Positions 17,905 through 36,185 of a stretch of 64,000 nucleotides of DNA are shown here, one piece after another. Both the position numbers and the translations under genes were made by a program. Below the pieces are notes generated by a model. The model was given only the letters and a program-made list of their open reading frames with translations, ran no database searches and was not told the origin of the DNA. Origin of the DNA: a virus; IMG/VR virus record IMGVR_UViG_3300030339_000011, positions 1 through 64,000 of that record. The stretch is one strand, 5' to 3'. The stretch's first letter is position 1, and every line of letters begins with the position of its first letter.

Positions 17905-18122
17905 AAATGTAAGGATATTATTTTAATATTCAATGAATAAACGTGAATATTTTAATATTATTTGTTTGCTTTTTTTCTGTAGTGTATATTTACAAAATAT
18001 AATATTACAAAACAAAGAACAAAAAATGCTGAAATGAAAGTAGGAATAGAACTCATGATAATTATTTTTAGTTATACATATTAATTAGAATTACAAAGAT
18101 AAGGATATTATTTTAATATATA
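17905..18122. repeat. Divergent intergenic region carrying a 20-bp direct repeat, TAAGGATATTATTTTAATAT, in two copies
   Basis: Copies at about 17911-17930 and 18101-18120. The region lies between divergent genes 17549..17836(-) and 18147..18671(+). Confidence 0.5.
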
Positions 18123-18146
18123 ATAATAAATAAAGTTAAATATATT

Positions 18147-18671
18147 ATGAATAGATTAAAAAGATTTGAATCATTTGGTGTGACAGATGATATTATACTT
18201 TCAATGACTGATAAATGTATTATTGATAATATTTTTTCGTCAAATGAAAGTATTTCTGAGTGGTGGAGTAAATTTATAGATTATGGTAAGAAAGGATTAT
18301 TGACTGCTACTATATTATTATCAATTGCTTTCTCATCTCAAGCACAGCAACAGAATAAATCAATGGATGTTATTAAGCAGGGTACTCAGATGATGCAATC
18401 AAATGATAAGAACAATGTTTATTCATTCTTTGTTGGAATATCAACAGAAAATTCTTCGTTGTCTATGAGAAATGGTGACATTGAATCTGCTGCAGGATTC
18501 AAAGAAATATCAAAATATTATGAAAATTTGAGAGATGGTAAAGATGCAGAAAAATTATCAATTAATGCAATTAAATGTATTAAAAAGATTAAAAATTTGT
18601 ATAATAAATTAGATAAAAACGACATTTCTAACTTTATTCAAAATGGTAAAAATTTACACACTATAGATTAA
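18147..18671 (+). CDS. Hypothetical secreted or membrane protein, 174 aa
   Basis: ORF track. Hydrophobic segment LLTATILLSIAFSSQAQQ. Confidence 0.5.
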   Translation: MNRLKRFESFGVTDDIILSMTDKCIIDNIFSSNESISEWWSKFIDYGKKGLLTATILLSIAFSSQAQQQNKSMDVIKQGTQMMQSNDKNNVYSFFVGISTENSSLSMRNGDIESAAGFKEISKYYENLRDGKDAEKLSINAIKCIKKIKNLYNKLDKNDISNFIQNGKNLHTID

Positions 18672-19041
18672 ATTTATTTGTTGAGAATCCTAAAATCAAA
18701 TCTAATTTGCTAATAACATGCCATGAGTCATATCCTGGTGATGAGTTACCAATTTTCATTTTATTTTTAAGTTCATCAATTTTCATTTCTCCATACAAAG
18801 AGCTTAATGACGGAGAATATTTAAAATTATTGCTAAGTAAAATATCAGTCTTTGATGAATTAGGATATCCATATATAATAATGGTGTCATGATTATCTTG
18901 AGTCATTTTATAGATATCATATTCTATTTGATTATCTTCTAATGTATTTATATTTGTCATTATATCATTACTATAATCATTGAATCTTCTATAATATATG
19001 TAATAATCAGTTTTTTTTTCAAATTCTTTTATATATTTCAT
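18661..19041 (-). CDS. famC protein (C2 body; MKYIKEFE ... NKFNL)
   Basis: ORF track. Conserved termini. Confidence 0.65.
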   Translation of the reverse strand: MKYIKEFEKKTDYYIYYRRFNDYSNDIMTNINTLEDNQIEYDIYKMTQDNHDTIIIYGYPNSSKTDILLSNNFKYSPSLSSLYGEMKIDELKNKMKIGNSSPGYDSWHVISKLDLILGFSTNKFNL

Positions 19042-19043
19042 TG

Positions 19044-19430
19044 TTATATGTTAAATTTATTGGACATTTTGACACTATCTATTAATTGATCAACATCTTC
19101 TATTTCAATTAAAGTCCAAAATTCAGAATTCAAAATAATTTCTTTTTCTTTTTCTAATTCATCAACTGAAAAAATATCATTATTTGTAGTAAAATTTATA
19201 CCTTTAAGAATGAAATCACTTTTTGATGATTCTAAATATGCATTTATGGCAAGAAAAATATCTTTTCCATTCATTATATAATAGAACATATCAAATTTTA
19301 TTTCAAATTTATTTAATCTTTGAATGTCACTATATAATCTAAGTTTAGATATATTATCTAATTGATAAGTTTTTACATATTTCTTAAACTTGTCATCATC
19401 TAAACTTTCATTAAATTTTTTTACTATCAT
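19044..19430 (-). CDS. famC protein (C2-like)
   Basis: MIVKKFNES ... SNKFNI. Confidence 0.6.
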   Translation of the reverse strand: MIVKKFNESLDDDKFKKYVKTYQLDNISKLRLYSDIQRLNKFEIKFDMFYYIMNGKDIFLAINAYLESSKSDFILKGINFTTNNDIFSVDELEKEKEIILNSEFWTLIEIEDVDQLIDSVKMSNKFNI

Positions 19431-19753
19431 AAATTAAATTTATTTGTTTGTAATATTAAAATTAAATCTTTCTTGTTTCTACTAAAATGATTTATTTCTT
19501 TTATGCTAAAAGGAAATGCTTCTTTATTTATTTTTGATGTGAACATTTCTAAATCTTTTAATAATTGTGGATCAAGATCATATTTTATGATATAAGGATA
19601 TTGAGCACCAAATGTGTCTACATAATCAATAATTTCTCCTATCATATCATGAATAAAAGAATTTAATCCACCTGTTTCATCAGTACATATGACAAAATCT
19701 CCAATTTCTGGCTTTCCTTCATCTAAACTTTCATTAAATCTTTCTACTTTCAT
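19427..19753 (-). CDS. famC protein (C1 body: PEIGDFVIC)
   Basis: MKVERFNES ... TNKFNL. Confidence 0.65.
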   Translation of the reverse strand: MKVERFNESLDEGKPEIGDFVICTDETGGLNSFIHDMIGEIIDYVDTFGAQYPYIIKYDLDPQLLKDLEMFTSKINKEAFPFSIKEINHFSRNKKDLILILQTNKFNL

Positions 19754-19754
19754 A

Positions 19755-20165
19755 TTATATATTAAATTTCATAGAATTTATAATAGTCTCTATCTCATCA
19801 AATTCAACTTCTGTCCATAAATCATGTTTATTAATTAAGGTATTCTTATAATTTTCGTCTTCATGTCTAAGAAAATCAAAGTTCATCTTATCAAGAACTA
19901 CTCTTTCTTCTATATTAATAGGAAATGCATATATTTTAAATGTGAAATGAGATGGTTCTATATGATCAAAATACTTATAGTATATAATGTTATCTATTTT
20001 GCAATTGTTTACTAGATATTCTGAGTCTTGCAATAAAAATTCTATATCATCATCATCATAAATGGAATATCTTTTGTAATAAACTTTAATCTGTACGTTA
20101 ATATCTTCATTAATATCTTCATTAATATCTTCATTATTATGTTCATTAAATTTGTTGATCCTCAT
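19755..20165 (-). CDS. famC protein (C2). Start moved to the internal MRINKFNE
   Basis: The track ORF (19755..20198) reads through the upstream KFNI-stop junction. The family start lies at the internal Met. Confidence 0.6.
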   Translation of the reverse strand: MRINKFNEHNNEDINEDINEDINVQIKVYYKRYSIYDDDDIEFLLQDSEYLVNNCKIDNIIYYKYFDHIEPSHFTFKIYAFPINIEERVVLDKMNFDFLRHEDENYKNTLINKHDLWTEVEFDEIETIINSMKFNI

Positions 20166-20166
20166 A

Positions 20167-20502
20167 TTATATGTTAAATTTTTGTGCTTGAATTTCAATT
20201 TTTAATTCTTCTTTTGTTAAAAATCTGCCATCTTTAATGTCTTTTACTTTTCTTTCTGTATCATAAACTTGAGATAAATTATAACCATTAGGAATATATA
20301 ACCCCATTAAATTACCAGGTATTCTAGCAAATATTCCTACAATAAATGAATTATTAGTTATTAATATATCATATTTTATTTTCAGATTATCAAATTTATT
20401 TAAATCTTTAATTATATCATCTATCGAATTATATTTTTCTCCATATAATTTATTATATATGAAAATATTTTCAACAGTATCATTAAATTTTAGTATTTTC
20501 AT
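20167..20502 (-). CDS. famC protein (C2)
   Basis: MKILKFNDT ... AQKFNI. Confidence 0.65.
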   Translation of the reverse strand: MKILKFNDTVENIFIYNKLYGEKYNSIDDIIKDLNKFDNLKIKYDILITNNSFIVGIFARIPGNLMGLYIPNGYNLSQVYDTERKVKDIKDGRFLTKEELKIEIQAQKFNI

Positions 20503-20503
20503 T

Positions 20504-20857
20504 TTATAAGTTAAATTTTCGTGCTTGTATTGTTGGTATAATATCTTCTTTCTTTATTAAATTTGAACTTCTACCTTTTCTTTTTTCTTCATATTCAGAT
20601 TCATTATCATAAATATCAGATGACTCAAAATCAATTGGTAGATTTTCTAATAAGAATTTTCCATCTAATTGAGCATATACTCCTAAGTAAATGTCTTTTT
20701 TATTTAATATGTATATATCATATTTTATGTTCTGTTTGTCTAATTTTTTCAAATCATTAAATACATCATCTATCTTATGATATTTTCCTTCTCCACTATA
20801 TAACTTATAATATATGTGAATTCTTTCGTTATTTTCATTGAATTTTAGTACTTTCAT
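20504..20857 (-). CDS. famC protein (C2). Start moved to MKVLKFNE
   Basis: Same junction logic as 19755..20165. Confidence 0.6.
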   Translation of the reverse strand: MKVLKFNENNERIHIYYKLYSGEGKYHKIDDVFNDLKKLDKQNIKYDIYILNKKDIYLGVYAQLDGKFLLENLPIDFESSDIYDNESEYEEKRKGRSSNLIKKEDIIPTIQARKFNL

Positions 20858-20858
20858 G

Positions 20859-21224
20859 TTATATGTTAAATTTATTTGCATTTAAAATTATTGGTATATC
20901 TTCTATTCTAATGATCTTATAACCAGCTCCTAAATACTCTTCTTCTATGTCTTCTTTACTTTTTGCTGATGATGAAATATATTCATATTTTAATATATTT
21001 CTTAAATGACAATCAGGATATATAAATATAAAAAAAACTCCAACTGTGTGATTATAAAGAAAGCTATAATCTACTTCATTCTTAGTTAATTCAACTAAGC
21101 AATTTAATAACACATTATATACATCATCAGTCTCAATATTAAATAACATATAATATATCTTATTTGGCTCATAAGTATTGTCTTCTGTATAAACAGAATT
21201 TTCATTAAATCTTTTTATATTCAT
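20859..21224 (-). CDS. famC protein (C2-like)
   Basis: MNIKRFNEN ... ANKFNI. Confidence 0.65.
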   Translation of the reverse strand: MNIKRFNENSVYTEDNTYEPNKIYYMLFNIETDDVYNVLLNCLVELTKNEVDYSFLYNHTVGVFFIFIYPDCHLRNILKYEYISSSAKSKEDIEEEYLGAGYKIIRIEDIPIILNANKFNI

Positions 21225-21225
21225 A

Positions 21226-21582
21226 TTAAATATTAAATTTGCTTGATTGAATTAATAATTCAATGTCATCTTTTTTTATAATTCTATTTCCTATGCGTAA
21301 TCTTGTTTCTATTATACCTTCTTTAGTTTCATTTTTGCTTATCATGAAATTTGGAATTGTAGAGTCCAGTTCATAATTTGTAAACGCGTATATTCTGAAG
21401 TAATTGAAATTTTTATTAAAATAAAAAATCACGTAATCTATTTTATATCTTTCTAATGATAATATATCAGAAGTTAAGTCCTCTAATTCATTTTCAATAA
21501 TATCATCAGGATTATCATTATACATATTATAATATGTATTTACTTTATTTTTATTTTCATTAAATTGTATATATGTTTTCAT
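21226..21582 (-). CDS. famC protein (C2)
   Basis: ...KIDYVIFYFNKNFNYFRIYAF...SSKFNI. Confidence 0.65.
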   Translation of the reverse strand: MKTYIQFNENKNKVNTYYNMYNDNPDDIIENELEDLTSDILSLERYKIDYVIFYFNKNFNYFRIYAFTNYELDSTIPNFMISKNETKEGIIETRLRIGNRIIKKDDIELLIQSSKFNI

Positions 21583-21900
21583 TTATAAGTTGAATTTTAT
21601 TGCGTTTAATATAGTTTCTAAATAAATTTTATTCTCACTATAGTATAAAATTTCTTCTCTATTGATCATGAATGAATTTTTATACTTTATAAGTGTCTCA
21701 TCTGTTATTTCTTTAATGTCTGGTATATTATCGTATTTTACTATGTATTCATACATCCCTCCGTTATCTATTTTTGTTAATACTCCAATATTATTTCTTG
21801 TGAATTCATTTATTTTAATATTTGAATGATATTCACATATTATATAATCACCTACTTTTATATCGTCAATTATATTTTCATATTTTTTTATATGCTTCAT
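21583..21900 (-). CDS. famC protein (C1)
   Basis: MKHIKKYEN..VGDYIICEY..VKYDNIPDI..AIKFNL. Confidence 0.65.
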   Translation of the reverse strand: MKHIKKYENIIDDIKVGDYIICEYHSNIKINEFTRNNIGVLTKIDNGGMYEYIVKYDNIPDIKEITDETLIKYKNSFMINREEILYYSENKIYLETILNAIKFNL

Positions 21901-22299
21901 TTATAAGTTGAATTTTTTCGCTCTCATTAAAAATATTATTTCATCCTTAGTTATTTTTAACCAATCCACATTTTTACGTAATTCTATGACTTTTTCCTTT
22001 GATAAATATCCAGAAAAATATGAATTGTCTATGAATTTTGATATTCTTATTTTTTCTCTATCATCAGGAAAGAAATTAATTCTTATAAATGAACCATTTG
22101 TCATGTCTTGATAATATATTACATAATCTATATTTGAATCTTCCAGTATTTTTATTTTCTCTATGACTTTGATTAATAATTTTTCATCATCAAATATAGA
22201 ATTTGATACTATCATAGTGTCAGAATGATAAGAACGTGGTTTAAATTTAGATTCATTAGATGATTCATTAAATGATAGATAAGAATTTATGTTATTCAT
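21901..22299 (-). CDS. famC protein (C2)
   Basis: ...NIDYVIYYQDMTNGSFIRINFF...AKKFNL. Confidence 0.65.
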   Translation of the reverse strand: MNNINSYLSFNESSNESKFKPRSYHSDTMIVSNSIFDDEKLLIKVIEKIKILEDSNIDYVIYYQDMTNGSFIRINFFPDDREKIRISKFIDNSYFSGYLSKEKVIELRKNVDWLKITKDEIIFLMRAKKFNL

Positions 22300-22395
22300 A
22301 TGATCTATATATTTAATTTACAATTCATAAAAAAAGAACCTATGAAATTAATCATAAGTTCCTTTTATTTAAATTATTATTATTATTAATTTATT

Positions 22396-22758
22396 TTATA
22401 CTATTATTTTAATATTAAACTTCTCCTCATATAATTTTATTTTTTCTTTTTGATATTTAATATTCGAATTTGTTGTATAATCTAAAAGAAATTGTAAAAT
22501 TTCAATGTGATCTTTAAATATTTTCTGAGATAAGAACTTTTGTATTCCAATATTTCTATCTGAGATATTTTCAATTGAATCGTAAAAATTTCTAACAATA
22601 TCAAAAATTACATACAATTGTTCACTAAAATCAAGTGATAATATTTTATCAGAAACAATAACAATATCTTTATCAATTTTTAATCCATTTAAAATTGACT
22701 TAGTTAATTCTAATATATCATCAGGATTACCATTAAATATAAATTCTCCTTTTTTCAT
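22396..22758 (-). CDS. famD hypothetical protein, 120 aa
   Basis: ORF track. Paralogue of the next gene (ELTKSILNGL / ELTKSVLNDL). Confidence 0.55.
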   Translation of the reverse strand: MKKGEFIFNGNPDDILELTKSILNGLKIDKDIVIVSDKILSLDFSEQLYVIFDIVRNFYDSIENISDRNIGIQKFLSQKIFKDHIEILQFLLDYTTNSNIKYQKEKIKLYEEKFNIKIIV

Positions 22759-22764
22759 AAATTA

Positions 22765-23136
22765 TTATATTTTACTTAAATCAATTACTATGTTATGAGT
22801 TTTCTCGTGTAATTCAAGTAGTTGAGTTCTGCTTAATCCATCATGTCCTTCATCAAAGAAAATGTCTACTAAAATTTCTCGGTGAGGTTTAAATTCTTTC
22901 TGAATTAAAAATTTTTCAATTGTTTTTATTTCAATTTTAGATCTATCAGTTAATGAATACAAATTATTTATGATATCATTAATTACTAGTAATTGTTTAC
23001 TAAATTCCAGAGATAATATGTTATCAGATATTTCCTTTGAATTTTCTTCCATGCTTAAATCATTCAAAACTGATTTTGTTAATTCAGATAATTCTTCAAA
23101 TGATTCACTTGTAGCCACAAATATTCCTTTTTCCAT
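22765..23136 (-). CDS. famD hypothetical protein, 123 aa
   Basis: ORF track. Confidence 0.55.
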   Translation of the reverse strand: MEKGIFVATSESFEELSELTKSVLNDLSMEENSKEISDNILSLEFSKQLLVINDIINNLYSLTDRSKIEIKTIEKFLIQKEFKPHREILVDIFFDEGHDGLSRTQLLELHEKTHNIVIDLSKI

Positions 23137-23267
23137 AACTTTTCATTTTAAATTGAGTACAAAAATATCTATTAATTCATATAATCCCTAATATTAATGT
23201 ATAATATTATAATTTATTAACCTTAATTCATATTTATTTTTACCTTTCTTAAAATTATATATAGCAT

Positions 23268-23510
23268 ATGAAACATTTAAAACAATTTGAAAATAAAAAA
23301 GAATTTGAAGTTGGAAATTATGTTCAAATAAATTATACAATAGGTAAAATTGTTGGAAGAATAATAGAAATTGACGGTAATGATGCAATTCTTGATACAA
23401 TTAATGGAATGAGAATTGTATTCTCATTCATTAACTATTTAGAAATAGCAAATAATAAACAAATAGAAATTTTTATAATGGAGAAAAATGCAAAAAAATT
23501 TAACTTATGA
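23268..23510 (+). CDS. famC protein (short C1-like; MKHLKQFE ... AKKFNL)
   Basis: Conserved termini. The overlapping minus ORF 23194..23400 is rejected. Confidence 0.6.
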   Translation: MKHLKQFENKKEFEVGNYVQINYTIGKIVGRIIEIDGNDAILDTINGMRIVFSFINYLEIANNKQIEIFIMEKNAKKFNL

Positions 23511-23839
23511 AACATTTAAAAATATATGAAGGTTATAATATGCCAGAAATAGGAGATTATGTCATATGTGATATAACTCCTGGACAATATGATGAATTTA
23601 GAGAACTTAAAGATTTTCTTATTGTTAATATAGGATTAATAATTTATGCTCCTAAATATTCAGATGAGTATGACTATGTTATAAGTTTTGATAATTTACC
23701 TAAAAATCTTGATTCTATGTTTGGCTCTAATACAAAAAATGGAAGAGGATTGAAATTCTCAATCGATGAGATTAAACATTTTAGTAAAGATAAGGAAAAA
23801 ATGAAGATTATACTATCATCAAATAAATTTAATATTTAA
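23507..23839 (+). CDS. famC protein (C1)
   Basis: MKHLKIYE..PEIGDYVICD..SFDNLP..SSNKFNI. Confidence 0.65.
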   Translation: MKHLKIYEGYNMPEIGDYVICDITPGQYDEFRELKDFLIVNIGLIIYAPKYSDEYDYVISFDNLPKNLDSMFGSNTKNGRGLKFSIDEIKHFSKDKEKMKIILSSNKFNI

Positions 23840-23840
23840 T

Positions 23841-24467
23841 ATGAAATACATTAAAAAATTTGAAAGTTCAATTAAAAAAATGATTTTGATTGGCGAAAAT
23901 TTGACTGAGTTGCCTGAATTACCAGATACTCTTATGAAATTGCAATGTTCTGATAATAAATTGACATCATTATCTAATTTACCTAATACATTAAATGAAA
24001 TATATTGTAACAATAATATGATAATTGAAATTTCTAAATTACCAGAATTTTTAACTGATTTTGCTTGCTCATATAATAAATTAAAAAAATTGCCAAATTT
24101 GCCTAATACATTAAAAGAACTTTTTTGCTGTGATAATAAACTAACAGAATTACCTATTCTGCCAGATAACTTAAGAATTCTTAGCTGTGATAATAATAAT
24201 TTAAATGAATTACCGATTTTACCAAAAAAATTAACATTATTATCTTGCTCTGGAAACAATTTAGAGAAATTGCCTGAATTACCAGATGGCTTATTGGATT
24301 TATATTGTTATAATAATAATTTAAAAGAATTACCTATATTACCAATTACATTGAAATCGTTGGCTTGTTCTGGTAATAATTTACCATATACTAATTTAAA
24401 AGAATATGATGAGTGGTTAGAAATAAATCATCCTGATATTTTTATGACTAGAAAATTTAACATATAA
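23841..24467 (+). CDS. famC LRR protein (YopM/IpaH-type 20-residue LPxLPxxLxxLxCxxNxL repeats, ~8 repeats)
   Basis: MKYIKKFES ... TRKFNI. LRR consensus visible throughout. Confidence 0.75.
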   Translation: MKYIKKFESSIKKMILIGENLTELPELPDTLMKLQCSDNKLTSLSNLPNTLNEIYCNNNMIIEISKLPEFLTDFACSYNKLKKLPNLPNTLKELFCCDNKLTELPILPDNLRILSCDNNNLNELPILPKKLTLLSCSGNNLEKLPELPDGLLDLYCYNNNLKELPILPITLKSLACSGNNLPYTNLKEYDEWLEINHPDIFMTRKFNI

Positions 24468-24468
24468 T

Positions 24469-25035
24469 ATGAAATACATTAAAAAATTTGAAAATTCAAA
24501 TATAGAATTGAATGATAATCATAAAAATTTAACTATATTGCATAAATTACCAAGAAATTTAGTAAAATTGGAATGCTCAGATAATAAATTGATTAATTTA
24601 CCTACGTTACCAAAAACATTAGAATATTTAGATTGTTCTGGTAATAAATTAATTAAATTGCCTGATATACCAGATTCCTGTAAAAAATTGTATTGTTATA
24701 ATAATAAATTAACTAAGTTGCCTAAATTGTCACAGAATTTAAAAATTATATCTTGCGCAGACAATAAATTAACAGAATTATCAGAGTTACCTGAATCATT
24801 AGATAAATTATATTGTGGTGAAAATAAATTGACAACTTTACCTAATTTACCAAGCAAATTAACTGTATTGTCTTGTAGATTTAATAAATTAACTGAGTTG
24901 CCTATTTTACCAGAAACAATAACAACATTGTATTGTGAAGGAAATGATTTAGGATATTCTGATTTGGATGGTTATTATGATTGGCTGGAAATTAATCATC
25001 CTGAAGTAGTTGATGCAAGTAAATTCAATATATAA
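24469..25035 (+). CDS. famC LRR protein
   Basis: MKYIKKFEN ... ASKFNI. 1-nt spacer from the upstream gene. Confidence 0.75.
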   Translation: MKYIKKFENSNIELNDNHKNLTILHKLPRNLVKLECSDNKLINLPTLPKTLEYLDCSGNKLIKLPDIPDSCKKLYCYNNKLTKLPKLSQNLKIISCADNKLTELSELPESLDKLYCGENKLTTLPNLPSKLTVLSCRFNKLTELPILPETITTLYCEGNDLGYSDLDGYYDWLEINHPEVVDASKFNI

Positions 25036-25038
25036 AAA

Positions 25039-25434
25039 TTATAAATTGAATTTGTCTGCTGTTAATATCATTTCTAATTCTTCAATTGTTTTACCAAATG
25101 CTTTTATATTTGTTTCATTTAGATGAATAACCTTATTTTTTTTAGAACCTAAATTAAAATAATCCCTAATTATATCTGGAATATTTTCATATTCAAAATA
25201 ATTTGATATTTCAGGATGTTTGTTTGATATGTCATATGATACATAATATGTTCTTAAAGTCTTTCCGTTTACTACTACTTTTCCTCCATAATTTCTTATT
25301 CTACCAATATTATTAGTTAAAAAGTCATAAATATCTCCTCCTAAATTGTAATTACTATTATCATATTCAAAAATAATATAATCATTTATTTTTGGCTCAT
25401 TATTTGTGTTTTCATTGAATCTTTCTATTTTCAT
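25039..25434 (-). CDS. famC protein (C1). Start moved to MKIERFNEN
   Basis: The track ORF (25039..25500) reads through the junction. Body has YENIPDII and ends TADKFNL. Confidence 0.6.
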   Translation of the reverse strand: MKIERFNENTNNEPKINDYIIFEYDNSNYNLGGDIYDFLTNNIGRIRNYGGKVVVNGKTLRTYYVSYDISNKHPEISNYFEYENIPDIIRDYFNLGSKKNKVIHLNETNIKAFGKTIEELEMILTADKFNL

Positions 25435-25436
25435 TA

Positions 25437-25754
25437 TTATATGTTGAATTTTCTGGATTGTAAAATAGTTTCTAAATCTTCTATGTTGTCTGACCAACAT
25501 AATATTTCTTTCCTTGAAAAAGTAGTTGTACCTTTATTGAAATATTTTTCTGTATCTTCTGGTATGTTTTCATATTGAACTACAAATGGATATTTATCTC
25601 CTCTATTAAATTCTATGCAAATACCAATATGACTATTAACAAAAGTTCTAGATTTAAATGCTCCAACGTAATCATTAGATAAAATGTATTCTCCTACCAT
25701 TGGAAAGTCTTTTTTATCAGACATTAATTTTTCAAACTCCTTTATATACTTCAT
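25437..25754 (-). CDS. famC protein (C1)
   Basis: MKYIKEFEK ... YENIPED ... SRKFNI. Confidence 0.65.
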   Translation of the reverse strand: MKYIKEFEKLMSDKKDFPMVGEYILSNDYVGAFKSRTFVNSHIGICIEFNRGDKYPFVVQYENIPEDTEKYFNKGTTTFSRKEILCWSDNIEDLETILQSRKFNI

Positions 25755-25756
25755 TG

Positions 25757-26101
25757 TTATAAGTTGAATTTATTTGTTTTTACTATATATTTTATCTTCT
25801 CCAAATCATCTCTTTTTATTTGAGTATATCCATTATTAGGTAGATTATTTTTTATGTCTTCTATGCTTGCAAATGATGAATTATCAAAATATCCTACTAA
25901 TAAATCTATTTTTGGCGTTCTTTTAAAATATATGAAAATTTCATATGTATTATCATGAGAATATATATAATGTTTTATTCTATTTTTTTCTAAATCATTT
26001 AAATCACGTATTAAAACTAACTCATCCTCTTTGCTATCTAAATTATAATTTTGGTAGTAGATATCAAATTCCCTACCTTCATTGAATCTTTCAATTTTCA
26101 T
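25757..26101 (-). CDS. famC protein (C2)
   Basis: MKIERFNEG ... NRIKHYIYSHDNTYEIFIYF ... TNKFNL. Confidence 0.65.
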   Translation of the reverse strand: MKIERFNEGREFDIYYQNYNLDSKEDELVLIRDLNDLEKNRIKHYIYSHDNTYEIFIYFKRTPKIDLLVGYFDNSSFASIEDIKNNLPNNGYTQIKRDDLEKIKYIVKTNKFNL

Positions 26102-26457
26102 TATAATGTATTATTATTTTCACTATTTCTTATTGATTCTAATTCATTTTTATTGTCCCCCCAATATCTAATCTCACCGTTGAATGCATAAATTTCCTTG
26201 ATATCATTATCAGATTCATAGTCACCATAAACATCATCAATATAGCTGTAATTTATAGTATAAAGAACTTCATATTTTTTAATAGAATTATTGTTACCTC
26301 TATTTATTTTTTTATTTTGGTCGTCAATATTTGTTATTAATCCAATAGAATCATTTATATTCTTTTTGTCATGACGGTTATTTACATTTAGTAATACATA
26401 ATTGCCTATCTCAGGCTCTCCATTGTTCAAACTCTCATTAAATCTTTTAACTCTCAT
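26101..26457 (-). CDS. famC-like protein (C1 N-terminus; lacks the KFNI terminus)
   Basis: MRVKRFNESLNNGEPEIGNYVLLN...; ends SENNNTL. Confidence 0.55.
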   Translation of the reverse strand: MRVKRFNESLNNGEPEIGNYVLLNVNNRHDKKNINDSIGLITNIDDQNKKINRGNNNSIKKYEVLYTINYSYIDDVYGDYESDNDIKEIYAFNGEIRYWGDNKNELESIRNSENNNTL

Positions 26458-26459
26458 TA

Positions 26460-26801
26460 TTATATGTTATATTTTTTAGAAACTAAGATAATTTCCAATT
26501 TAGATTTATCCTTAGAAGAATATTTTATTTCTTCTCTTAAAAATCTGATAGCTGATTCATATTTATTGTCCAAGTAGCCAACATGTAATGATTCAGGTAT
26601 GTTATCATATTGTACAACATATTTATCATCCCTACTTTTTTCTCCATTTATGTCTATTACTTTTCCAATATTATTATTTACAAGAATATTAAAGTCATCA
26701 AATTTATAATTTTCTGGATCATATTCATTGCATATTACATAATCACCAATTTCAATTTTTTTCTTATTTATATTACTTTCATTGAATCTAATTATCTTCA
26801 T
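26460..26801 (-). CDS. famC protein (C1)
   Basis: ..IEIGDYVICNEY..VVQYDNIPESL..SKKYNI. Confidence 0.65.
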   Translation of the reverse strand: MKIIRFNESNINKKKIEIGDYVICNEYDPENYKFDDFNILVNNNIGKVIDINGEKSRDDKYVVQYDNIPESLHVGYLDNKYESAIRFLREEIKYSSKDKSKLEIILVSKKYNI

Positions 26802-26803
26802 TG

Positions 26804-27136
26804 TTATATATTAAATTTATTTGATTTTAGAATTAATTCTAATTCTTTTTTATCTTGAGTCCAATATTTTATTTCAGTGCGCTTCATTCTTACTGTATTA
26901 TCACTATTGAAAAAAATATGTAAATTATGTGGAATATCATAAAATCTAATAGCATACGGATGAGTTGGATATTTATCATAATCATTCTTTACATACATAC
27001 CAATAGATGACATCATAAAATTATCAATGTCACTAAAATCATTTATAGTACTATCATGATTGTCATTGCATATTACATAATCACCAATTTCTGGGTTTCC
27101 TTCATTTAAACTCTCATTAAATCTTATTATCTTCAT
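26804..27136 (-). CDS. famC protein (C1)
   Basis: ..PEIGDYVICND..RFYDIPHNL..SNKFNI. Confidence 0.65.
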   Translation of the reverse strand: MKIIRFNESLNEGNPEIGDYVICNDNHDSTINDFSDIDNFMMSSIGMYVKNDYDKYPTHPYAIRFYDIPHNLHIFFNSDNTVRMKRTEIKYWTQDKKELELILKSNKFNI

Positions 27137-27510
27137 TATATGTTAAATTTATTTGATATTGTTGATAGATAAATTGATTCTATATCTTCTTTATTTACTT
27201 TTTCAAAATCTGTGTTATTGAACCAATGTCTAACTTCTCCTAAATCTTTACGATCAGTCACATGTTTAAAATTGTGAGTATTGGCAAAATCATAGAATGT
27301 GTTAATTGAGTCGTTTATATATGAATATAATATAAAATTCCAACTTGAATCTACTCCTTCTTTATAATATATATCATATAATAAAAATCCAGATTTTATT
27401 AAGTCTCTAATATCATCATTTAATATTTCAACTCCAATGTCATCACATTTATAAGTTTTTAGATATAATTTGAAATTGTTGATGCTTTCATTAAATCTAT
27501 TAATCTTCAT
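27136..27510 (-). CDS. famC protein (C2)
   Basis: MKINRFNES ... YDIYYKEGVDSSWNFILYSY ... SNKFNI. Confidence 0.65.
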   Translation of the reverse strand: MKINRFNESINNFKLYLKTYKCDDIGVEILNDDIRDLIKSGFLLYDIYYKEGVDSSWNFILYSYINDSINTFYDFANTHNFKHVTDRKDLGEVRHWFNNTDFEKVNKEDIESIYLSTISNKFNI

Positions 27511-27512
27511 AA

Positions 27513-27875
27513 TTATAAGTTAAATTTTTTAGTTATTAAATTAAGTTCTAATTCTTCTTTGTTTTTAGAATAATCTAATATTAAACTATCTCCAAATAAA
27601 CACAAATTGTTAACAATTGGTTTAATTTCAATATCAGGATCATTATGAAATCTATTTAATATATCATCAGGTATGTTATCATATTTAACTTTAATATCAT
27701 GACTATAACGATAAATATAATATATTTGACCTACATTATTATTTATAAAATTTATAAATTTTTTATCATCATCATCAGATGATGATCTTAACATTTTATT
27801 CGCATTTATTAAAACATAATCATCTTCACTAGGTTCATCATATTGTAGGCTATCATTAAATCTATTAATCTTCAT
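27513..27875 (-). CDS. famC protein (C1)
   Basis: ..VKYDNIPDDIL..TKKFNL. Confidence 0.65.
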   Translation of the reverse strand: MKINRFNDSLQYDEPSEDDYVLINANKMLRSSSDDDDKKFINFINNNVGQIYYIYRYSHDIKVKYDNIPDDILNRFHNDPDIEIKPIVNNLCLFGDSLILDYSKNKEELELNLITKKFNL

Positions 27876-27877
27876 AT

Positions 27878-28255
27878 TTACAAGTTAAATTTATTTGATC
27901 TTAAAATAATTTCAATATCTTCTCTATTAGTATTTTTATCAAAGTCATTATTTATTAATGTTTTTCTGAATCTTTCTACTGTACTTATTAATGAATACCA
28001 TGTCAAATAATGATATTCATTTATCAGTCTTTCATCTTCTACATTTTTAGGATAACAATATAAGTAATATATATTAAAATCCATATCAACCTTAATATCA
28101 TATTTTATATCATTAGATTCCAAAATATCTATTATTTTTATTATCTTATGCGATATATTGATAATATTTTTATTTTCGTATCTATATTCTGCAAAATATA
28201 TATTGTGATAAGGTTTATTATTTTCTACATTATCAGTATTTTTTTTAATTATCAT
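27878..28255 (-). CDS. famC protein (C2)
   Basis: ..NDIKYDIKVDMDFNIYYLYCYP..SNKFNL. Confidence 0.6.
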   Translation of the reverse strand: MIIKKNTDNVENNKPYHNIYFAEYRYENKNIINISHKIIKIIDILESNDIKYDIKVDMDFNIYYLYCYPKNVEDERLINEYHYLTWYSLISTVERFRKTLINNDFDKNTNREDIEIILRSNKFNL

Positions 28256-28257
28256 AA

Positions 28258-28551
28258 TTATAAATTGAATTTATTAGTATTTGATAATAAATCTTTATTC
28301 ATTTTTAATTCTTCTAAATCATGAGAATGTAGCAATATTTCATCCCTACTGTACATTTGGTTGTCATTAGCATCTCCTATCTGTATTTCATATGTATAAT
28401 AACCAGTTGGACCTTCTACTATATAAACTACCTCTCCTATGCAATAATCAAAGGTGTCTTTATGCCCTTTTCTCTTGCAAATTACATAATCATTCATCCA
28501 AATATCTGGATATTTAGAGTAAGTATCTTCAAATGTTTTTATATGATTCAT
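28258..28551 (-). CDS. famC protein (C1-like)
   Basis: MNHIKTFED..DYVICKRKGH..TNKFNL. Confidence 0.6.
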   Translation of the reverse strand: MNHIKTFEDTYSKYPDIWMNDYVICKRKGHKDTFDYCIGEVVYIVEGPTGYYTYEIQIGDANDNQMYSRDEILLHSHDLEELKMNKDLLSNTNKFNL

Positions 28552-28886
28552 ATATTAAATTTCTTAGCATTTATCATAGTTTCTAAATCATTTATATTTT
28601 TATTCCATAATTCAATCTCCCATTTTCCAAATTGAAAATTATCAGTCTTGCCACTTTTTTTCGTGATTAAGTCATATTGCATTCTAAATTCACTGAAATT
28701 ATCAGGAATATTATCATAATGAACAATATATGGATAATTTTTATCTTCAGATATACTAACAATTTGACCTATTTTATCCTTTATAAATTTATTCCTTTTA
28801 ATATTATTTGAAGATAATTTCGATACACAATAAACATAATCACCAACTTCTGGATTATTTTCAAATGAGTTAAAATCGGTTATCAT
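28548..28886 (-). CDS. famC protein (C1)
   Basis: ..PEVGDYVYC..VHYDNIPDNF..AKKFNI. Confidence 0.65.
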   Translation of the reverse strand: MITDFNSFENNPEVGDYVYCVSKLSSNNIKRNKFIKDKIGQIVSISEDKNYPYIVHYDNIPDNFSEFRMQYDLITKKSGKTDNFQFGKWEIELWNKNINDLETMINAKKFNI

Positions 28887-29215
28887 ACGTTGAATTTGTT
28901 AGTTTTTAATATTAGTTCTAATTTTTCCTTATCTTTATCCCAGTATTTTATTGCTCTTCTAGCAATCTCACATTCATAGAAGCTTTTATCATTTTTAGTC
29001 TTTCTACTGAATTCATTTTTTAATTCTCTTGGTACGTCTTCATATTGAATAACATATATTTTCTGAAGATTATTCCATAAATAAGAAAAACTCAATTTTG
29101 AAATATTATTATTTATAAAATCATATAATTTTGTTTTTACATTTACTTCACATAAAATATAATCGCCATTCTCTGGCTCATCTTCTATGCTTTCATTAAA
29201 TCTTTTTATGTTCAT
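28883..29215 (-). CDS. famC protein (C1)
   Basis: MNIKRFNES..PENGDYILC..QYEDVPREL..TNKFNV. Confidence 0.65.
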   Translation of the reverse strand: MNIKRFNESIEDEPENGDYILCEVNVKTKLYDFINNNISKLSFSYLWNNLQKIYVIQYEDVPRELKNEFSRKTKNDKSFYECEIARRAIKYWDKDKEKLELILKTNKFNV

Positions 29216-29217
29216 TA

Positions 29218-29628
29218 TTATATGTTAAATTTTCTTGATCTTATTCTCATCTTAAATGCTTCTAAATTTTGAATATTCTTTGAAGATACATTATCAAATT
29301 TGTCATATTTATTTAATAATTCTTTTTCTATCTCATCTATCTCATCTATCTTCAATCCTAAATACATCTTATTTGTAAAATCACTATATAAATATTCCAT
29401 TCCCCATAAAATATCACGTTGATTTATGTCATATCTATTTTTGCTATTATTATAAATAAATGCATACACAATTGCAATATTTCTTAAATTGTAATAAATG
29501 TTATAATCAATATTTGAATTATCTAAATTACTCAAATCTTCTATTAATTCATCATATGATTCATATTTTTTGGAATATAAATCGCATGTCTGTTGAGATT
29601 TTTCTTCATATGTCTTTATATTTTTCAT
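29218..29628 (-). CDS. famC protein (C2)
   Basis: ..NIDYNIYYNLRNIAIVYAFIY..SRKFNI. Confidence 0.65.
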   Translation of the reverse strand: MKNIKTYEEKSQQTCDLYSKKYESYDELIEDLSNLDNSNIDYNIYYNLRNIAIVYAFIYNNSKNRYDINQRDILWGMEYLYSDFTNKMYLGLKIDEIDEIEKELLNKYDKFDNVSSKNIQNLEAFKMRIRSRKFNI

Positions 29629-29637
29629 ATATTAAAC

Positions 29638-30090
29638 TTATATATTTTTTTTAGCCAGTATATACTCATTATATTTATCTGGATATAATTTCTTTAAAAT
29701 ACTAGCATTCTCAAAATTTAAATGATCAAACATATACATACCTTTATGATCTCTTTCTCCCCAATATGCTCCTGCATCAGTCAGCATTTTTATTATTTCA
29801 ATACAATATTCTCTATTACCTTTTGACGCTAATATGATAGGAAACATTGGTGATTTATTTGGTAAATTAGGATCTGCTCCATTTTCAAGTAATTCCTTTA
29901 TTATTATTATATTTTGATAAGAAACTGCCATTATTAGAGGAGTGTTTCCAAACTGACTAAATATATTAACATTATCAAAAGAATCAATAACCCTTTTAAT
30001 TGAATCTTTTTTATTAGAATAACTAATAATGGACATTAATTCACCAATAGTATAATCATTAGAATTCTCAAAAGTCTTTAAATATTTCAC
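29638..30090 (-). CDS. Ankyrin-repeat protein with a famC-type N-terminus (MKYLKTFEN)
   Basis: Two ankyrin repeats: GNTPLIMAVSYQNIIIIKELLENGADPN and SPMFPIILASKGNREYCIEIIKMLTDAGA. Confidence 0.65.
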   Translation of the reverse strand: MKYLKTFENSNDYTIGELMSIISYSNKKDSIKRVIDSFDNVNIFSQFGNTPLIMAVSYQNIIIIKELLENGADPNLPNKSPMFPIILASKGNREYCIEIIKMLTDAGAYWGERDHKGMYMFDHLNFENASILKKLYPDKYNEYILAKKNI

Positions 30091-30419
30091 ATGTTAAATT
30101 TATTTGTTGAGATATTTAATTCTAATTCTTCTAATGTAGAACCAATTTCTAAAATATCTGTAACATAAAATAATTTTGATTTTATATTTTTATCACTAAT
30201 ATAATTAAAGTATGCACTAATAATATCAGGTACATTTTCATATTTTACTACAATTGTAAATACCTCACCGTTTGAAAAAGTACCTATTTTTATAATTTCT
30301 CCTGGATTATTTTTAACAAAATTTGAAATAGATTTTATTCCTACTGGTTCAATTAGTACATAATCTCCTACTTCTGGTACTTTTTTATTTATGCTCTCAT
30401 TAAACTTTAATATTTTCAT
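30087..30419 (-). CDS. famC protein (C1)
   Basis: MKILKFNES..PEVGDYVLIE..KYENVPDII..TNKFNM. Confidence 0.65.
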   Translation of the reverse strand: MKILKFNESINKKVPEVGDYVLIEPVGIKSISNFVKNNPGEIIKIGTFSNGEVFTIVVKYENVPDIISAYFNYISDKNIKSKLFYVTDILEIGSTLEELELNISTNKFNM

Positions 30420-30420
30420 A

Positions 30421-30747
30421 TTATATGTTAAATTTTTTAGTCTTTATGATAGTTTCTAATTCTTCTTTATTCTTAGAAAAATATAATATTTCTTCTTTTT
30501 TAAATGGTATCGTATTATAATCATTATTATTTGTATAGCTACTTAACTGACTTGGTAAATCATCATATTTTATTGAATATGGATAATTTATCATATCTTT
30601 ACTCGTTGTATCTATAATAATGCCAATATTTACACTTGTAAATTCATTTAATGATTTCTCACCTGATTCATCACTATGACAAATTACATAATCTCCAATT
30701 TCTGGCTCATTTTCATTTATATTCTCATTAAATTTTCTAACTTTCAT
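30421..30747 (-). CDS. famC protein (C1)
   Basis: MKVRKFNEN..PEIGDYVICH..KYDDLPSQL..TKKFNI. Confidence 0.65.
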   Translation of the reverse strand: MKVRKFNENINENEPEIGDYVICHSDESGEKSLNEFTSVNIGIIIDTTSKDMINYPYSIKYDDLPSQLSSYTNNNDYNTIPFKKEEILYFSKNKEELETIIKTKKFNI

Positions 30748-30794
30748 ATTATTATATATTTATTTTAAAATACCATAATATTTAACACTATTAT

Positions 30795-31241
30795 TTATAC
30801 AACTTTATAATCAAAATAATCTTTTATATTTTTATACTTAATTTCTAATTTTTTATTAAAGGTATATTGATAACTTCTATCTGATTTGACATCATTAAAA
30901 GTTACATTATATGTCCTAAAATGTTTAATGTCATTTAATTTATCAAATATGAACATTAAAGCACTTCTTTCATCAGGTAATCCATTATTAATTAAATAAT
31001 CTCTGATATTATAGTCACACATAAAAATATTTCTTAGATTATCTATCTCAAATAAACATATTCCTTTATCTACATCAGGCAATATCTTATCATCTTTATT
31101 ATCTATCTGGCATAATTTATTGTGACGTATGTATGATATGTCATAATACAATCCTATGACATCACGTGGTTGTTTAGTTCTAACTATATAGCAGGAATTA
31201 AATATACTCAAAAACCAGTTACTTAAATCTTTGTTGTCCAT
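30795..31241 (-). CDS. famE protein (MDNKDLSNWFLSIFNSCYIV...)
   Basis: ORF track. Paralogous to the 52530-53898 and 58164-59356 clusters. Confidence 0.55.
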   Translation of the reverse strand: MDNKDLSNWFLSIFNSCYIVRTKQPRDVIGLYYDISYIRHNKLCQIDNKDDKILPDVDKGICLFEIDNLRNIFMCDYNIRDYLINNGLPDERSALMFIFDKLNDIKHFRTYNVTFNDVKSDRSYQYTFNKKLEIKYKNIKDYFDYKVV

Positions 31242-31689
31242 ATGGTTTTAATATTGTATTAATATCTAATGAAGTTAATTTTAATTTAAGACTATCAATT
31301 TTAACAGTATTTATAACAGCAAAATATGTAGGAGTATAATCATGAAATCTAGTGTATTTCAATATCTCTTGTATAAATTTTTGAATATCATTATCAAGAG
31401 TTTTAGATTTTATATCAGATTCATTAAATTTCTTTCTTAAATGTGACCAAATAATATAATAATCACATGACATCATATTATATTTAATGTCAATGTCAAA
31501 TAATTTTATTCCTTTGTTGAAATTTGGAATAAATGATAATTCTTTTTTACTTATAACACACAATTTCTTACTACGAATAAATGACTTATCGTAATATAAA
31601 TATACATGATTAGGAAAAATATCACTTGATACTACATAGCATGACTTAAATTTACTCCAAAACCATTTACTTAATTCTTCTTTATCCAT
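31219..31689 (-). CDS. famE protein
   Basis: MDKEELSKWFWSKFKSCYVV... Confidence 0.55.
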   Translation of the reverse strand: MDKEELSKWFWSKFKSCYVVSSDIFPNHVYLYYDKSFIRSKKLCVISKKELSFIPNFNKGIKLFDIDIKYNMMSCDYYIIWSHLRKKFNESDIKSKTLDNDIQKFIQEILKYTRFHDYTPTYFAVINTVKIDSLKLKLTSLDINTILKPYGQQRFK

Positions 31690-31690
31690 G

Positions 31691-32188
31691 CTATTTTAAT
31701 ATTTTTTTAATGTCTAAATATTTAATTTCTAACTGATTAATATCTATAGAGTATAATTCTGGACTTGATTTTAAATCTAAACTGAAAGAACTTGTGCATA
31801 AATATGAATGAGAAATAAAAAAATCTCTATCGTTATGAGAAAATATATTAAATTTGAATATTTCTCCTTTAATAAATTTGTCCAACTCATTGACATTTGA
31901 TGAGTAATTTGATTCTAAATAACTATATATCTTATCATAAGAGCAATTGATACCATAAAGAGAACAATGTATGATTAATAATAATTCACTCTTACCAATG
32001 TCAGGTAAAATAGCTTCACTGTCATTAATATTATAATATATTGAATTTAATCTTGATAATTTATTACGACGAACATAAGATTTATCATATAATAGATATA
32101 ATAATTCTGGTTGTGTTGTATCATTTGCTACATAACAAGATTTTAATATGTCCAAAAACCATTTAATAGATTCATTCTTTGTCATCAT
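31691..32188 (-). CDS. famE protein
   Basis: MMTKNESIKWFLDILKSCYVAN... Confidence 0.55.
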   Translation of the reverse strand: MMTKNESIKWFLDILKSCYVANDTTQPELLYLLYDKSYVRRNKLSRLNSIYYNINDSEAILPDIGKSELLLIIHCSLYGINCSYDKIYSYLESNYSSNVNELDKFIKGEIFKFNIFSHNDRDFFISHSYLCTSSFSLDLKSSPELYSIDINQLEIKYLDIKKILK

Positions 32189-32296
32189 CTGTAATAAAAA
32201 CTTTATTTGTAATCTCTATATTTTTTACAAATATACTAAATTATATCCTATCTAACAAATATAAATGTTCAACATGAAAAATTAATATATAACTAC

Positions 32297-32611
32297 ATGA
32301 AATATATTAAACAATATGAAGAAAAAGACTATATTCCACATGTTGGCGATTATGTTCTATGTCATACAGAATCTGACACAAAGGATAAAGATACTTTTAA
32401 TCACACGATAGGTTATTTTGATAGAATGTTTTCAAGCTATTATGTCATAAGATTTGATAAAAAACAGGAGATGAAACAAGGTAATAGAATATATGCAAAA
32501 AATGATTTAGATAAAATATATTTATATGCTTATAAATATGAAGTTATATATTGGTCTAAAAATAAAGAAGAGTTAGAATTAATATTAACCGCAAATAAAT
32601 TTAACCTTTAA
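32297..32611 (+). CDS. famC protein (C1; MKYIKQYEEK ... TANKFNL)
   Basis: ORF track. AATATATAACTAC sits directly upstream of the ATG. Confidence 0.65.
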   Translation: MKYIKQYEEKDYIPHVGDYVLCHTESDTKDKDTFNHTIGYFDRMFSSYYVIRFDKKQEMKQGNRIYAKNDLDKIYLYAYKYEVIYWSKNKEELELILTANKFNL

Positions 32612-32790
32612 TAACTATGAATTATAAAAATAAGTATTACCTTTGTAGACTAATAATTAATACTAAGTCTATTATGAAAATGCACAACAAAGAAATTATT
32701 AAATATGCTATTCGATGGGCAGTAATTGCATATGTTTTTCTTTCTATTTTATATATTTCATATATTCATTTTATTCATTAACATCACATT

Positions 32791-34739: not shown

Positions 34740-34740
34740 A

Positions 34741-35490: not shown

Positions 35491-35491
35491 A

Positions 35492-36178: not shown

Positions 36179-36185
36179 TTATATT

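Follow-up and report, generated by a model that had tools for sequence, protein, structure and literature searches.

Here we report on arrays of small, tightly packed genes in a 64,000-nucleotide stretch of viral DNA (positions 1 to 64,000 of IMG/VR record IMGVR_UViG_3300030339_000011; hereafter the window), with particular attention to the junction at 24453-24471, where the end of one array gene and the start of the next read AAA TTT AAC ATA TAA T ATG. A sequence-only reading of the window had proposed that such gene-terminal codons double as a promoter for the following gene, and that this second function explains why the encoded C-terminal tail, K-F-N-I, is conserved. Our comparisons instead indicate that selection acts on the C-terminal peptide (an aromatic residue at -3, Asn at -2 and an aliphatic residue at -1) and not on the TATA-like DNA that encodes it, and they point to a different element, an (A/T)ATATATA(G/A) box, as the predicted promoter. 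We regard as probable an overall model that combines one-promoter arrays, a late-type box, coupled internal genes and selection on the peptide tail.

In this model each operon-like array would represent one transcription unit, begun by a -10-only box (A/T)ATATATA(G/A) that differs in one letter from the late promoter of phage T4, TATAAATA, often with a hairpin/T-run terminator just upstream of it, and closed by a hairpin. At the family arrays the last A of the box lies 5 nt from the ATG and, given T4 geometry, the first transcribed base would be the A of the ATG, so that the RNA would be leaderless; the box of fibre and baseplate genes lies 13-16 nt upstream, which would leave an A-rich leader of ~10 nt. 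Internal genes would have no promoter of their own and would be read from polycistronic RNA by termination-reinitiation coupling, which we infer from stop-start distances of -4 to +2 nt, unstructured junctions and the lack of Shine-Dalgarno sequences. Selection would fall on the peptide tail, with the TATA-like string of the junction following from AT-only codons.

Conservation of peptide and DNA at gene ends

The flagged junction has the following parts:

24453-24467, plus strand: last four codons and stop, AAA TTT AAC ATA TAA (K-F-N-I-stop), the conserved C-terminal tail at the end of the leucine-rich repeat (LRR) gene 23841-24467
24461-24468, plus strand: the flagged CATATAAT string, formed by the AAC, ATA and TAA codons and one spacer T, 0 nt from the next ATG
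24469-24492, plus strand: start codon and conserved N-terminal tag MKYIKKFE, at the start of the next LRR gene, 24469-25035

The check suggested by the sequence-only reading itself, a comparison of junction DNA with the encoded peptide at synonymous positions, was run against the sister phage L156, a syntenic 235-kb JGI contig identified by profile search. Across 27 reciprocal-best gene pairs (43-80% amino acid identity), K-F-N is invariant apart from a single Y, whereas the complete 15-nt end is identical in only 7; the Asn codon is unchanged in 17 tails, the last residue in 14 (with I/L swaps), the stop codon in 20 and the spacing class in 15. Because the Asn codon is retained in 17/27 tails, compared with 68.7% (0.687) for the same codon at identical residues in the cores of these pairs, synonymous drift in the tail is no slower than elsewhere. 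Among 47 paralog or orthologue pairs, the same Asn codon is used in 55% and the same stop in 53%, against 67% in gene cores.

Distant relatives, gathered independently of the tail DNA through the baseplate protein, a degenerate DNA pattern for the core motif EIGDYVIC and a protein profile, retain the peptide in other codons (e.g. AAT TTA TGA, AAT CTA TGA, AAT ATG TAA and AAT GTT TAA), mostly with ATGA overlaps. The C-termini of the best 120 database homologues have K in 115, Y/F in 75/43, N in 117 and L/I in 79/41; the commonest tail among them is KYNL, not KFNI, and the commonest homologue tail DNA is AAATATAATTTATGA with an ATGA overlap. The last tail residue may be encoded by ATA, ATT, TTA, CTA, TTG, ATG, GTA or GTT. 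Moreover, the tail is kept at array ends or where a gene faces a convergent neighbor (e.g. 18661, 24469, 25039, 33023, 43424, 50490, 51852, 54030 and 56265), and other paralog arrays of the window have conserved tails of their own that contain no TATA-like string (...KCSK at 3303-6752 and ...YLRKKKLEKL at 11760-16534). Since the codons of orthologues and paralogs, the KYNL homologues, the array-end tails and the TATA-free arrays all agree, it is the peptide rather than the DNA that is selected, and a promoter constraint does not account for the conservation of KFNI, which persists while codons, stop and spacing vary and also where no gene lies downstream. Where a genome is extremely AT-rich, a conserved peptide built from K, F, Y, N, I and L will inevitably have TATA-like coding DNA, and a promoter should be read into such a string only after conservation of the peptide has been tested against that of synonymous sites.

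Layout of the junctions

Junction counts use two gene lists, a first list with 39 internal junctions and a patched list with 41. Stop and start are separated by 2 nt at 16 of the 39 junctions, by 1 nt at 8 and by 0 nt at 2, with 4-nt ATGA overlaps at 9 and other arrangements at 4, such that the 1-2 nt spacing (TAA N ATG) described earlier applies to ~60% of junctions while the rest include abutting genes (0 nt) and ATGA overlaps. The TATAAT-like element formed by ...AAC ATA TAA T ATG was likewise read accurately at the flagged site but somewhat over-generalised: exact CATATAAT is present at 8 of the 41 junctions, 0-1 nt from the ATG, and TATAAT at 11, with ACATATA at 18 and perfect ATATATA at 2. 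TATAAT ends 0-1 nt before the next ATG and ACATATA 2-3 nt before it, at variable spacing.

A bacterial -10 element ends ~7 nt upstream of its start site. A -10 element at the junctions is unlikely because, with the string only 0-3 nt from the ATG, transcripts would begin inside the next open reading frame (ORF). The junction hexamers do not place a start site ahead of the start codon, are not in excess over composition and are not conserved among orthologues; sigma-70-type promoter matches in 18000-37900 number 235, compared with 232.6 +/- 16.6 in shuffles, which represents no enrichment. The absence of DNA conservation beyond the peptide, the 0-3 nt spacing and the lack of sigma-70 enrichment thus speak against the proposal that terminal codons serve as the promoter of the next gene. 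By contrast, read-through transcription fits, since no hairpins or terminators separate internal array genes and the RNA of the flagged junction (24440-24500) is unstructured (minimum free energy, MFE, -1 kcal/mol; z = +1.2). Shine-Dalgarno-like 4-mers at -20 to -4 occur in 3 of 137 genes, below the level of random windows. The sequence upstream of genes is A-rich, with A at -10 in 107 of 137. The TATA-like string of the junction is a coding by-product of K-F-N-I and TAA in AT-only codons.

A putative late-type box at the heads of arrays

The presence of (A/T)ATATATA(G/A) near the ATG of solitary and fibre genes, also noted in the sequence-only reading, was fully borne out, with ATATATA(A/G) at 6 of 6 coordinates. 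ATATATA ending 4-6 nt upstream was found at 13 of 2600 ATG triplets on both strands, and 10 of these 13 are first-of-array family starts. Boxes lie within 40 nt upstream of 17 of the 39 genes preceded by a gap of at least 25 nt, compared with 5 of 99 tightly packed genes (Fisher p = 2e-7), and relatives have a box at 4-6 nt in 14 of 67 first genes versus 2 of 110 internal genes. Inside genes the (TA)4 8-mer TATATATA is scarce, with 2 observed against 18 expected from synonymous shuffling. Two spacing classes are apparent: one of 5+/-1 nt at family arrays (22299, 23268, 30747, 32297, 37006, 48525, 50326, 51589, 54284 and 55999) and one of 13-17 nt at baseplate/fibre genes, where the motif is longer, T(T/A)ATATATAGAAATAAAA. 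The boxes are as follows:

23257-23264, plus strand: ATATATAG box, core ending 4 nt before the ATG of 23268-23510; predicted to drive the array 23268-25035, in which the flagged junction lies
22305-22312, minus strand: ATATATAG box, core ending 6 nt before the ATG of 21901-22299, head of the 10-gene array 22299->18661
30752-30759, minus strand: ATATATAA box, core ending 5 nt before the ATG of 30421-30747, head of the ~17-gene array 30747->25039
32285-32292, plus strand: ATATATAA box, core ending 5 nt before the ATG of the solitary family gene 32297-32611
37012-37018, minus strand: ATATATA box, 5 nt before the ATG of 36557-37006, head of the LRR array 37006->34113
38985-38992, minus strand: ATATATAG(AAATAAAA) box, core ending 15 nt before the ATG of the gp9/10-like baseplate/fibre gene 37087-38970
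40887-40894, minus strand: cassette identical to that at 38985-38992, before gene 39034-40872
43349-43356, minus strand: ATATATAG(AAATAAAA) box, core ending 16 nt before the ATG of the fibre-like gene 40934-43333
48530-48537, minus strand: ATATATAA box, core ending 5 nt before the ATG of 48139-48525, head of the LRR array 48525->43424
50331-50338, minus strand: ATATATAA box, core ending 5 nt before the ATG of 49820-50326
51577-51584, plus strand: ATATATAG box, core ending 5 nt before the ATG of 51589-51855
54290-54296, minus strand: AAATTTAATATATA box, 5 nt before the ATG of 54030-54284, in the 17-nt gap after a fibre-like gene; its DNA is the AAT version of the K-F-N-I coding sequence
55316-55323, minus strand: ATATATAA box, core ending 13 nt before the ATG of the fibre-like gene 54302-55303
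55987-55994, plus strand: ATATATAA box, core ending 5 nt before the ATG of 55999-56268
59750-59757, plus strand: ATATATAG(AAATAAAA) box, core ending 16 nt before the ATG of the fibre-like gene 59773-61299
61951-61958, plus strand: ATATATAG(AAATAAAA) box, core ending 15 nt before the ATG of the fibre-like gene 61973-63550
63628-63635, plus strand: ATATATAG(AAATAAAA) box, ~15 nt before the ATG (63650) of a 596-residue fibre-like gene running off the window

The box agrees with the T4 late promoter at 6-7 of 8 positions and precedes orthologues of virion genes, namely two gp9/10-like baseplate/fibre genes together with five fibre-like paralogs. At the orthologous baseplate gene, the canonical TATAAATA is found in relatives L010, L012, L013, L018 and L020 and in marine T4-likes, and the closer relative L007 has TATATATA, as in the window. 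The position specificity of the box, its adjacency to terminators, the canonical sequence at the orthologous gene and the lineage variants already known together make it credible that ATATATA(G/A) is a lineage variant of the gp55-type late promoter. Inference from sequence thus supports a role for the box upstream of solitary, first-of-array and fibre genes as a promoter that would give leaderless or near-leaderless RNAs. The earlier prediction of near-leaderless transcripts for every gene would accordingly be confined to the heads of transcription units, as box spacing predicts, and would not extend to internal genes, which appear to have no promoter of their own.

The window encodes at least eight fibre/baseplate-like paralogs (37087-43333, minus strand; 54302-55303, minus strand; 59773-63550, plus strand, and on into L104) of two N-terminal types, MSKQTINIGT and M(I/L)NIQLASEE. 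The terminator-promoter-leader cassettes upstream of 37087-38970 and 39034-40872 are identical over ~45 nt or more.

Terminators and intergenic cassettes

Several boxes directly follow significant hairpin/T-run structures (z = -4.7 to -5.1), and arrays end at hairpins (z = -5.1 to -7.4):

22332-22365, minus strand: hairpin and T-run preceding the box at 22305-22312 (z = -4.65); cassette conserved in L156
38993-39030, minus strand: hairpin and T-run directly preceding the box at 38985-38992 (z = -5.07)
25015-25060, no strand assigned: hairpin formed by the C-terminal codons of the convergent genes 24469-25035 (plus) and 25039-25500 (minus), at the end of both arrays (MFE -11.9 kcal/mol, z = -5.1)
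33006-33041, no strand assigned: bidirectional hairpin terminator between 32791-33006 (plus) and 33023-33358 (minus), one arm being K-K-F-N-L coding sequence (MFE -19.5 kcal/mol, z = -7.4)
53988-54034, minus strand: hairpin and T-run terminator right after the stop of 54030-54284 (z = -5.5)

Where family genes converge or end arrays, the K-F-N codons form one arm of a stable hairpin (25015-25060 and 33006-33041). The terminator-box cassette is conserved in L156, and phylogenetic footprinting of the box against this phage was uninformative, the entire intergenic cassette being highly conserved. In the terminator-promoter cassettes of L156 and the window (e.g. 22300-22400 and 30748-30800) most aligned positions match, compared with 43-80% amino acid identity for the proteins that they control. 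Because the cassettes appear so much better conserved than the family proteins, this suggests fast protein evolution under what would be conserved regulation.

Further repeated elements occur in the intergenic DNA. One of ~30-50 nt, present in four copies (48604-48655, 49265-49316, 50448-50499 and 50772-50823), adjoins LRR-family genes and reads TTAAAACTTCGGTGAGGG(A/T)(G/T)AAAGT(A/G)A on the minus strand, with a similar string, TAAGTTCGGTCAGGGAGAAAATG, in relatives L090 and L096. A near-palindrome, GTGACCAC/GTGGTCAC, often in the form AACATTTGTGGTCAC, recurs between genes beside family arrays (34020-34060, 49216-49306 and 56832-56860).

Codon bias at the tail and alternative readings

A number of observations weigh against the model of one-promoter arrays headed by a late-type box. 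The box of the fibre genes is overlapped by another sequence, TAGAAATA, that agrees with TATAAATA at 7/8 positions, which makes the exact -10 register there ambiguous. The C-variant ACATATAG stands 4 nt before the start of 48637-49215, and because this is a first-of-array gene, junction-type sequence might retain some activity. Queries with T4 gp55 and gp45 (phmmer) against the ORFs of the window, ~20 kb of flanks and relatives' fragments found neither protein, the genome (220-330 kb or larger) lying mostly outside this search, and PHROGs profiles applied to the genes beside a gp32-like gene gave no gp33, which was not among the phmmer queries. Finally, some nucleotide-level force, for which the model does not account, acts at the tail Asn, which is encoded by AAC in 36 of 51 window genes (71%) against a background of 11.9% (p = 3e-22).

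AAC is also used at the tail Asn in 21 of 35 genes in L156 and 9 of 9 in relative L131, and in 2 of 32 in relative L154. It stands where AAT would yield AAATTTAATATATAA, that is, K-F-N-I-stop in its usual codons and a perfect copy of the box, which occurs verbatim at the bona fide intergenic boxes of 54284, 55303 and 55999. Before ATA followed by TAA or TAG, AAC is used in 22 of 25 genes versus 0 of 5 with ATT TAA (Fisher p = 4e-4), and the ratio of AAC to other codons is 22/3 in this context versus 14/12 in all others (p = 0.013). Similarly, Lys2 is AAG in 10 of 12 genes before TAT ATA and AAA in 7 of 7 otherwise (p = 7e-4). The AAC statistics count paralogs, which are not independent observations. 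Two general causes were considered and rejected: codon context, as core AAC amounts to just 18.5% before ATA, 4.9% before TTA and 7.2% after TTT, and avoidance of AATATATA throughout coding DNA, as its apparent depletion (17 versus 36 expected) comes almost entirely from family termini, with 11 versus 14 in cores.

This evidence is mixed, and what it suggests is selection against a perfect box at each junction, the opposite of a promoter function. As an addition to the model, selection may favour the rare AAC codon (alternatively ATT at the Ile, or AAG at Lys2 where TAT ATA follows) so that junctions and gene starts stay silent, a reading that we hold to be possible but unlikely. The AAC and AAG biases are indeed strongest where a box could form, core codon context fails to explain AAC (in the N-terminal FNE motif, 16 of 17 genes use AAT for Asn), and TATATATA is depleted in coding DNA. 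However, AAC is also preferred before TTA (7:3) and, in L131, at ATGA-overlap junctions (9/9), in neither of which a box is possible, and relatives with the same box tolerate AAATATATAAA or AATATATAA just after the ATG and AATATATAA in tails; the lack of AATATATA depletion in gene cores and the non-independence of paralogs also count against it.

With ~70% of more than 50 junctions kept one C from the box, a related and rather doubtful suggestion is that the tail DNA constitutes a latent promoter silenced by one rare codon, AAATTTAATATATAA being the phage's own box plus its upstream context. If this were true, replacing one C by T, or losing the upstream gene, would be enough to make any cassette an independent leaderless transcription unit, and conservation of the tag would be coupled to the evolvability of array architecture.

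Also quite unlikely, in our estimation, is a role for the conserved ~40 bp that run from the tail through stop and start to the N-terminal tag as homology in cassette duplication and shuffling, with short-patch exchange maintaining AAC, in a manner functionally similar to the PeSL elements of T4-type phages (PMC2839356, PMC4122927). Such a role would suit the unrelated cores that bear the same two ends, the uncoupling of tail codon state from the closest paralog or orthologue, the array- and lineage-specific codon states (9/9 AAC in L131, 2/32 in L154) and the K-F-N sequence (AAATTTAA) common to N-terminal (K/R)-F-N-E and C-terminal K-F-N-I (e.g. in gene 30421-30747), by which a short direct repeat flanks each cassette. 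Nevertheless, the ends are conserved as peptides across lineages whose DNA differs (KFNI versus KYNL), synonymous identity is no higher at the ends than in cores, which argues against strong homogenisation, and no recombinant junctions were demonstrated.

It is very unlikely that the ATATATA box is a translation-initiation signal or regulator-binding site rather than a promoter. The very short, fixed distance of 5 nt to the ATG would suit a translational signal, and without Shine-Dalgarno use another start signal might be needed; yet the box is lacking at internal genes that also need translation (5/99 in the window, 2/110 in relatives), lies at a different distance at fibre genes (13-16 nt), stands immediately after terminators and, at the orthologous gene of relatives, has canonical TATAAATA in its place. 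Lastly, that gene-terminal (A)ACATATAA(T) is a working, possibly weak overprinted promoter, giving each gene a near-leaderless transcript and constraining KFNI, is highly improbable: despite tail DNA one C/T away from a real box, AAATTTAATATATA at the intergenic boxes of 54284, 55303 and 55999, the C-variant 4 nt before one first-of-array gene and the Asn codon bias, its DNA is unconserved among orthologues beyond the peptide, it cannot form in most homologues (KYNL with ATGA overlaps), its spacing varies over 0-3 nt compared with a fixed 5 nt at real boxes, its tail is retained at array ends, CATATAAT appears at only 8 of 41 junctions and no terminators separate the internal genes.

The tagged gene family

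Between 51 and 55 ORFs of the window end in [KR][FY]N[ILMV], and most of them also start with MK(Y/I/H)(I/L)(K/R)xF(E/N)E; a leader of the form MK[YH][IL]Kx[FY]E is present in the 120 homologues as well as in the window paralogs. The cores between these ends are unrelated to one another and include LRR (Pfam LRR_4), ankyrin (29638-30090), a ~110-residue domain and at least one further alpha/beta type. AlphaFold2 modelled the ~110-residue core as a small beta-barrel with a C-terminal helix, for which a Foldseek search of the PDB gave weak likeness only to photosystem I subunit E (PsaE; E 6e-3 or worse), which we take to be an SH3-like barrel. The models place KKFN at the end of the C-terminal helix and predict residues 1-9 to be disordered; pairing of the N- and C-terminal tags within the fold was considered and is not predicted, the N-terminus being disordered and the C-terminus helical. 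Non-LRR members matched no Pfam or PHROGs family, and a profile search returned 247 relatives, all metagenomic and none informatively named. The family is therefore very large and unannotated, with 247 database relatives and more than 50 copies per 64 kb, and its two conserved terminal tags framing unrelated domains may represent an addressing system.

Three further paralog families in the window have conserved ends of their own: 3303-6752 (plus strand), with MFKVGDKVVC...KCSK and 13-nt gene overlaps; 11760-16534 (minus strand); and 30795-32188, 52530-53898 and 58164-59356 (minus strand). One of the three, an M(D/N)KEELSKWF family, has another motif upstream, TAAATATTATACA-ATG, that may represent a further class of promoter.

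The phage and its relatives

The window is part of an uncultured, very AT-rich, T4-related jumbo phage found only in peat/bog metagenomes, an assignment based on T4 markers, on contigs from peat metagenomes and on the 126-330 kb sizes of these contigs. GC content is 21-30% along the length of the window (22% for the phage), and small ORFs are tightly crowded. Two large minus-strand proteins, 37087-38970 and 39034-40872, carry the Pfam domain T4_gp9_10_N and match PHROGs family phrog_677, baseplate wedge tail fiber protein connector, and the left flank of the window codes for a gp32-like single-strand-binding protein and a T4_Y16D protein. Of the T4 queries gp55, gp45, gp44, gp46 and gp47, phmmer found matches for gp44 and gp46 only, encoded on relatives' contigs that bear the tagged gene family. 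Identical or near-identical contigs of 126-235 kb come from peat/bog metagenomes (JGI 3300029998, 3300029983 and 3300030019; ENA ERZ2724xxxx-ERZ2725xxxx), and IMG/VR relatives measure 222-330 kb. A megablast search with 22 kb against 50,697 phage records gave no matches, and Rfam and tRNA scans of the window found none.

Elsewhere in the window, 7965-10424 (minus strand) encodes an 819-residue protein with major-vault-protein shoulder (Pfam MVP_shoulder, E = 9e-28), Vault_3 repeat and SPFH/Band_7 domains, which is unusual in a phage genome. Repeat-rich, mostly non-coding DNA at 52961-53183, 57801-58163 and 57017-57062 with 57237-57282 contains a 66-nt unit repeated four times in tandem, TTTTTTTTGGAAAAATTTTAGAGGTATTTTACCCAGTT in four to five copies and a 46-nt sequence duplicated exactly, and could represent an origin or regulatory region.

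Comparison with known systems

The T4 late promoter is TATAAATA at -13 to -6, with A or T at -13 among T4-like phages and CTAAATA in Aeh1 (PMC1524935), and a cyanophage variant reads NATAAATA (PMC2984593). The box described here is similarly an 8-bp, AT-only, -10-type element without an identified -35 partner that precedes baseplate and fibre genes, and its first position is A or T, as in other T4-likes. It differs in its core, TATATATA/AATATATA, with T for A at position 5, and in heading large accessory-gene arrays in addition to structural genes. T4-type late promoters are read by host RNA polymerase together with phage gp55, gp33 and the gp45 clamp, and another difference is that no gp55 or gp33 was found in the DNA searched. 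T4 late mRNAs have Shine-Dalgarno leaders, whereas a box 5 nt from the ATG at family arrays would give leaderless RNAs. The TATATATA late-promoter variant thereby gives this uncultured clade of T4-related jumbo phages a promoter prediction that can be tested, and its predicted placement would have accessory arrays expressed as leaderless RNAs in a system without Shine-Dalgarno use.

The internal junctions resemble those of translationally coupled genes (ATGA or TAAnATG) in their stop-start distances of -4 to +2 nt and their unstructured RNA, and differ in the lack of Shine-Dalgarno use in this genome and in the conserved peptide-coding sequence upstream of the start. PeSL cassettes, conserved promoter and stem-loop motifs flanking variable ORFs in T4-type hyperplastic regions (PMC2839356, PMC4122927), present another parallel, in that small ORFs of high variability in a T4-related genome lie between short conserved sequences and array boundaries bear a conserved composite of hairpin/T-run and promoter box. 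PeSLs are, however, intergenic and carry early promoters, whereas the junctions of the window are coding, with 0-2 nt of intergenic DNA, unstructured and free of stem-loops, and hairpin and box come together only at array boundaries, in composites with a late-type box.

Finally, the diverse internal proteins of T-even phages have as their sole conserved part a capsid targeting sequence (CTS), MKTYQEFIAE (PMC3012670). We confirmed this leader on the sequences of T4 IPII and IPIII. The window family likewise shares a leader of ~10 residues, a short conserved N-terminal MK...(E/K)F..E, on many otherwise unrelated, fast-evolving small proteins, and its genes stand behind the same box as structural genes. 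The resemblance of the leaders is limited to M-K-x3-E-F, and the family, known here from its genes alone, differs in having more than 50 members per 64 kb and a conserved C-terminal tag. Because the family arrays share their box with virion genes, it is possible, by analogy with the T4 internal proteins, that the family proteins are packaged or ejected effectors.

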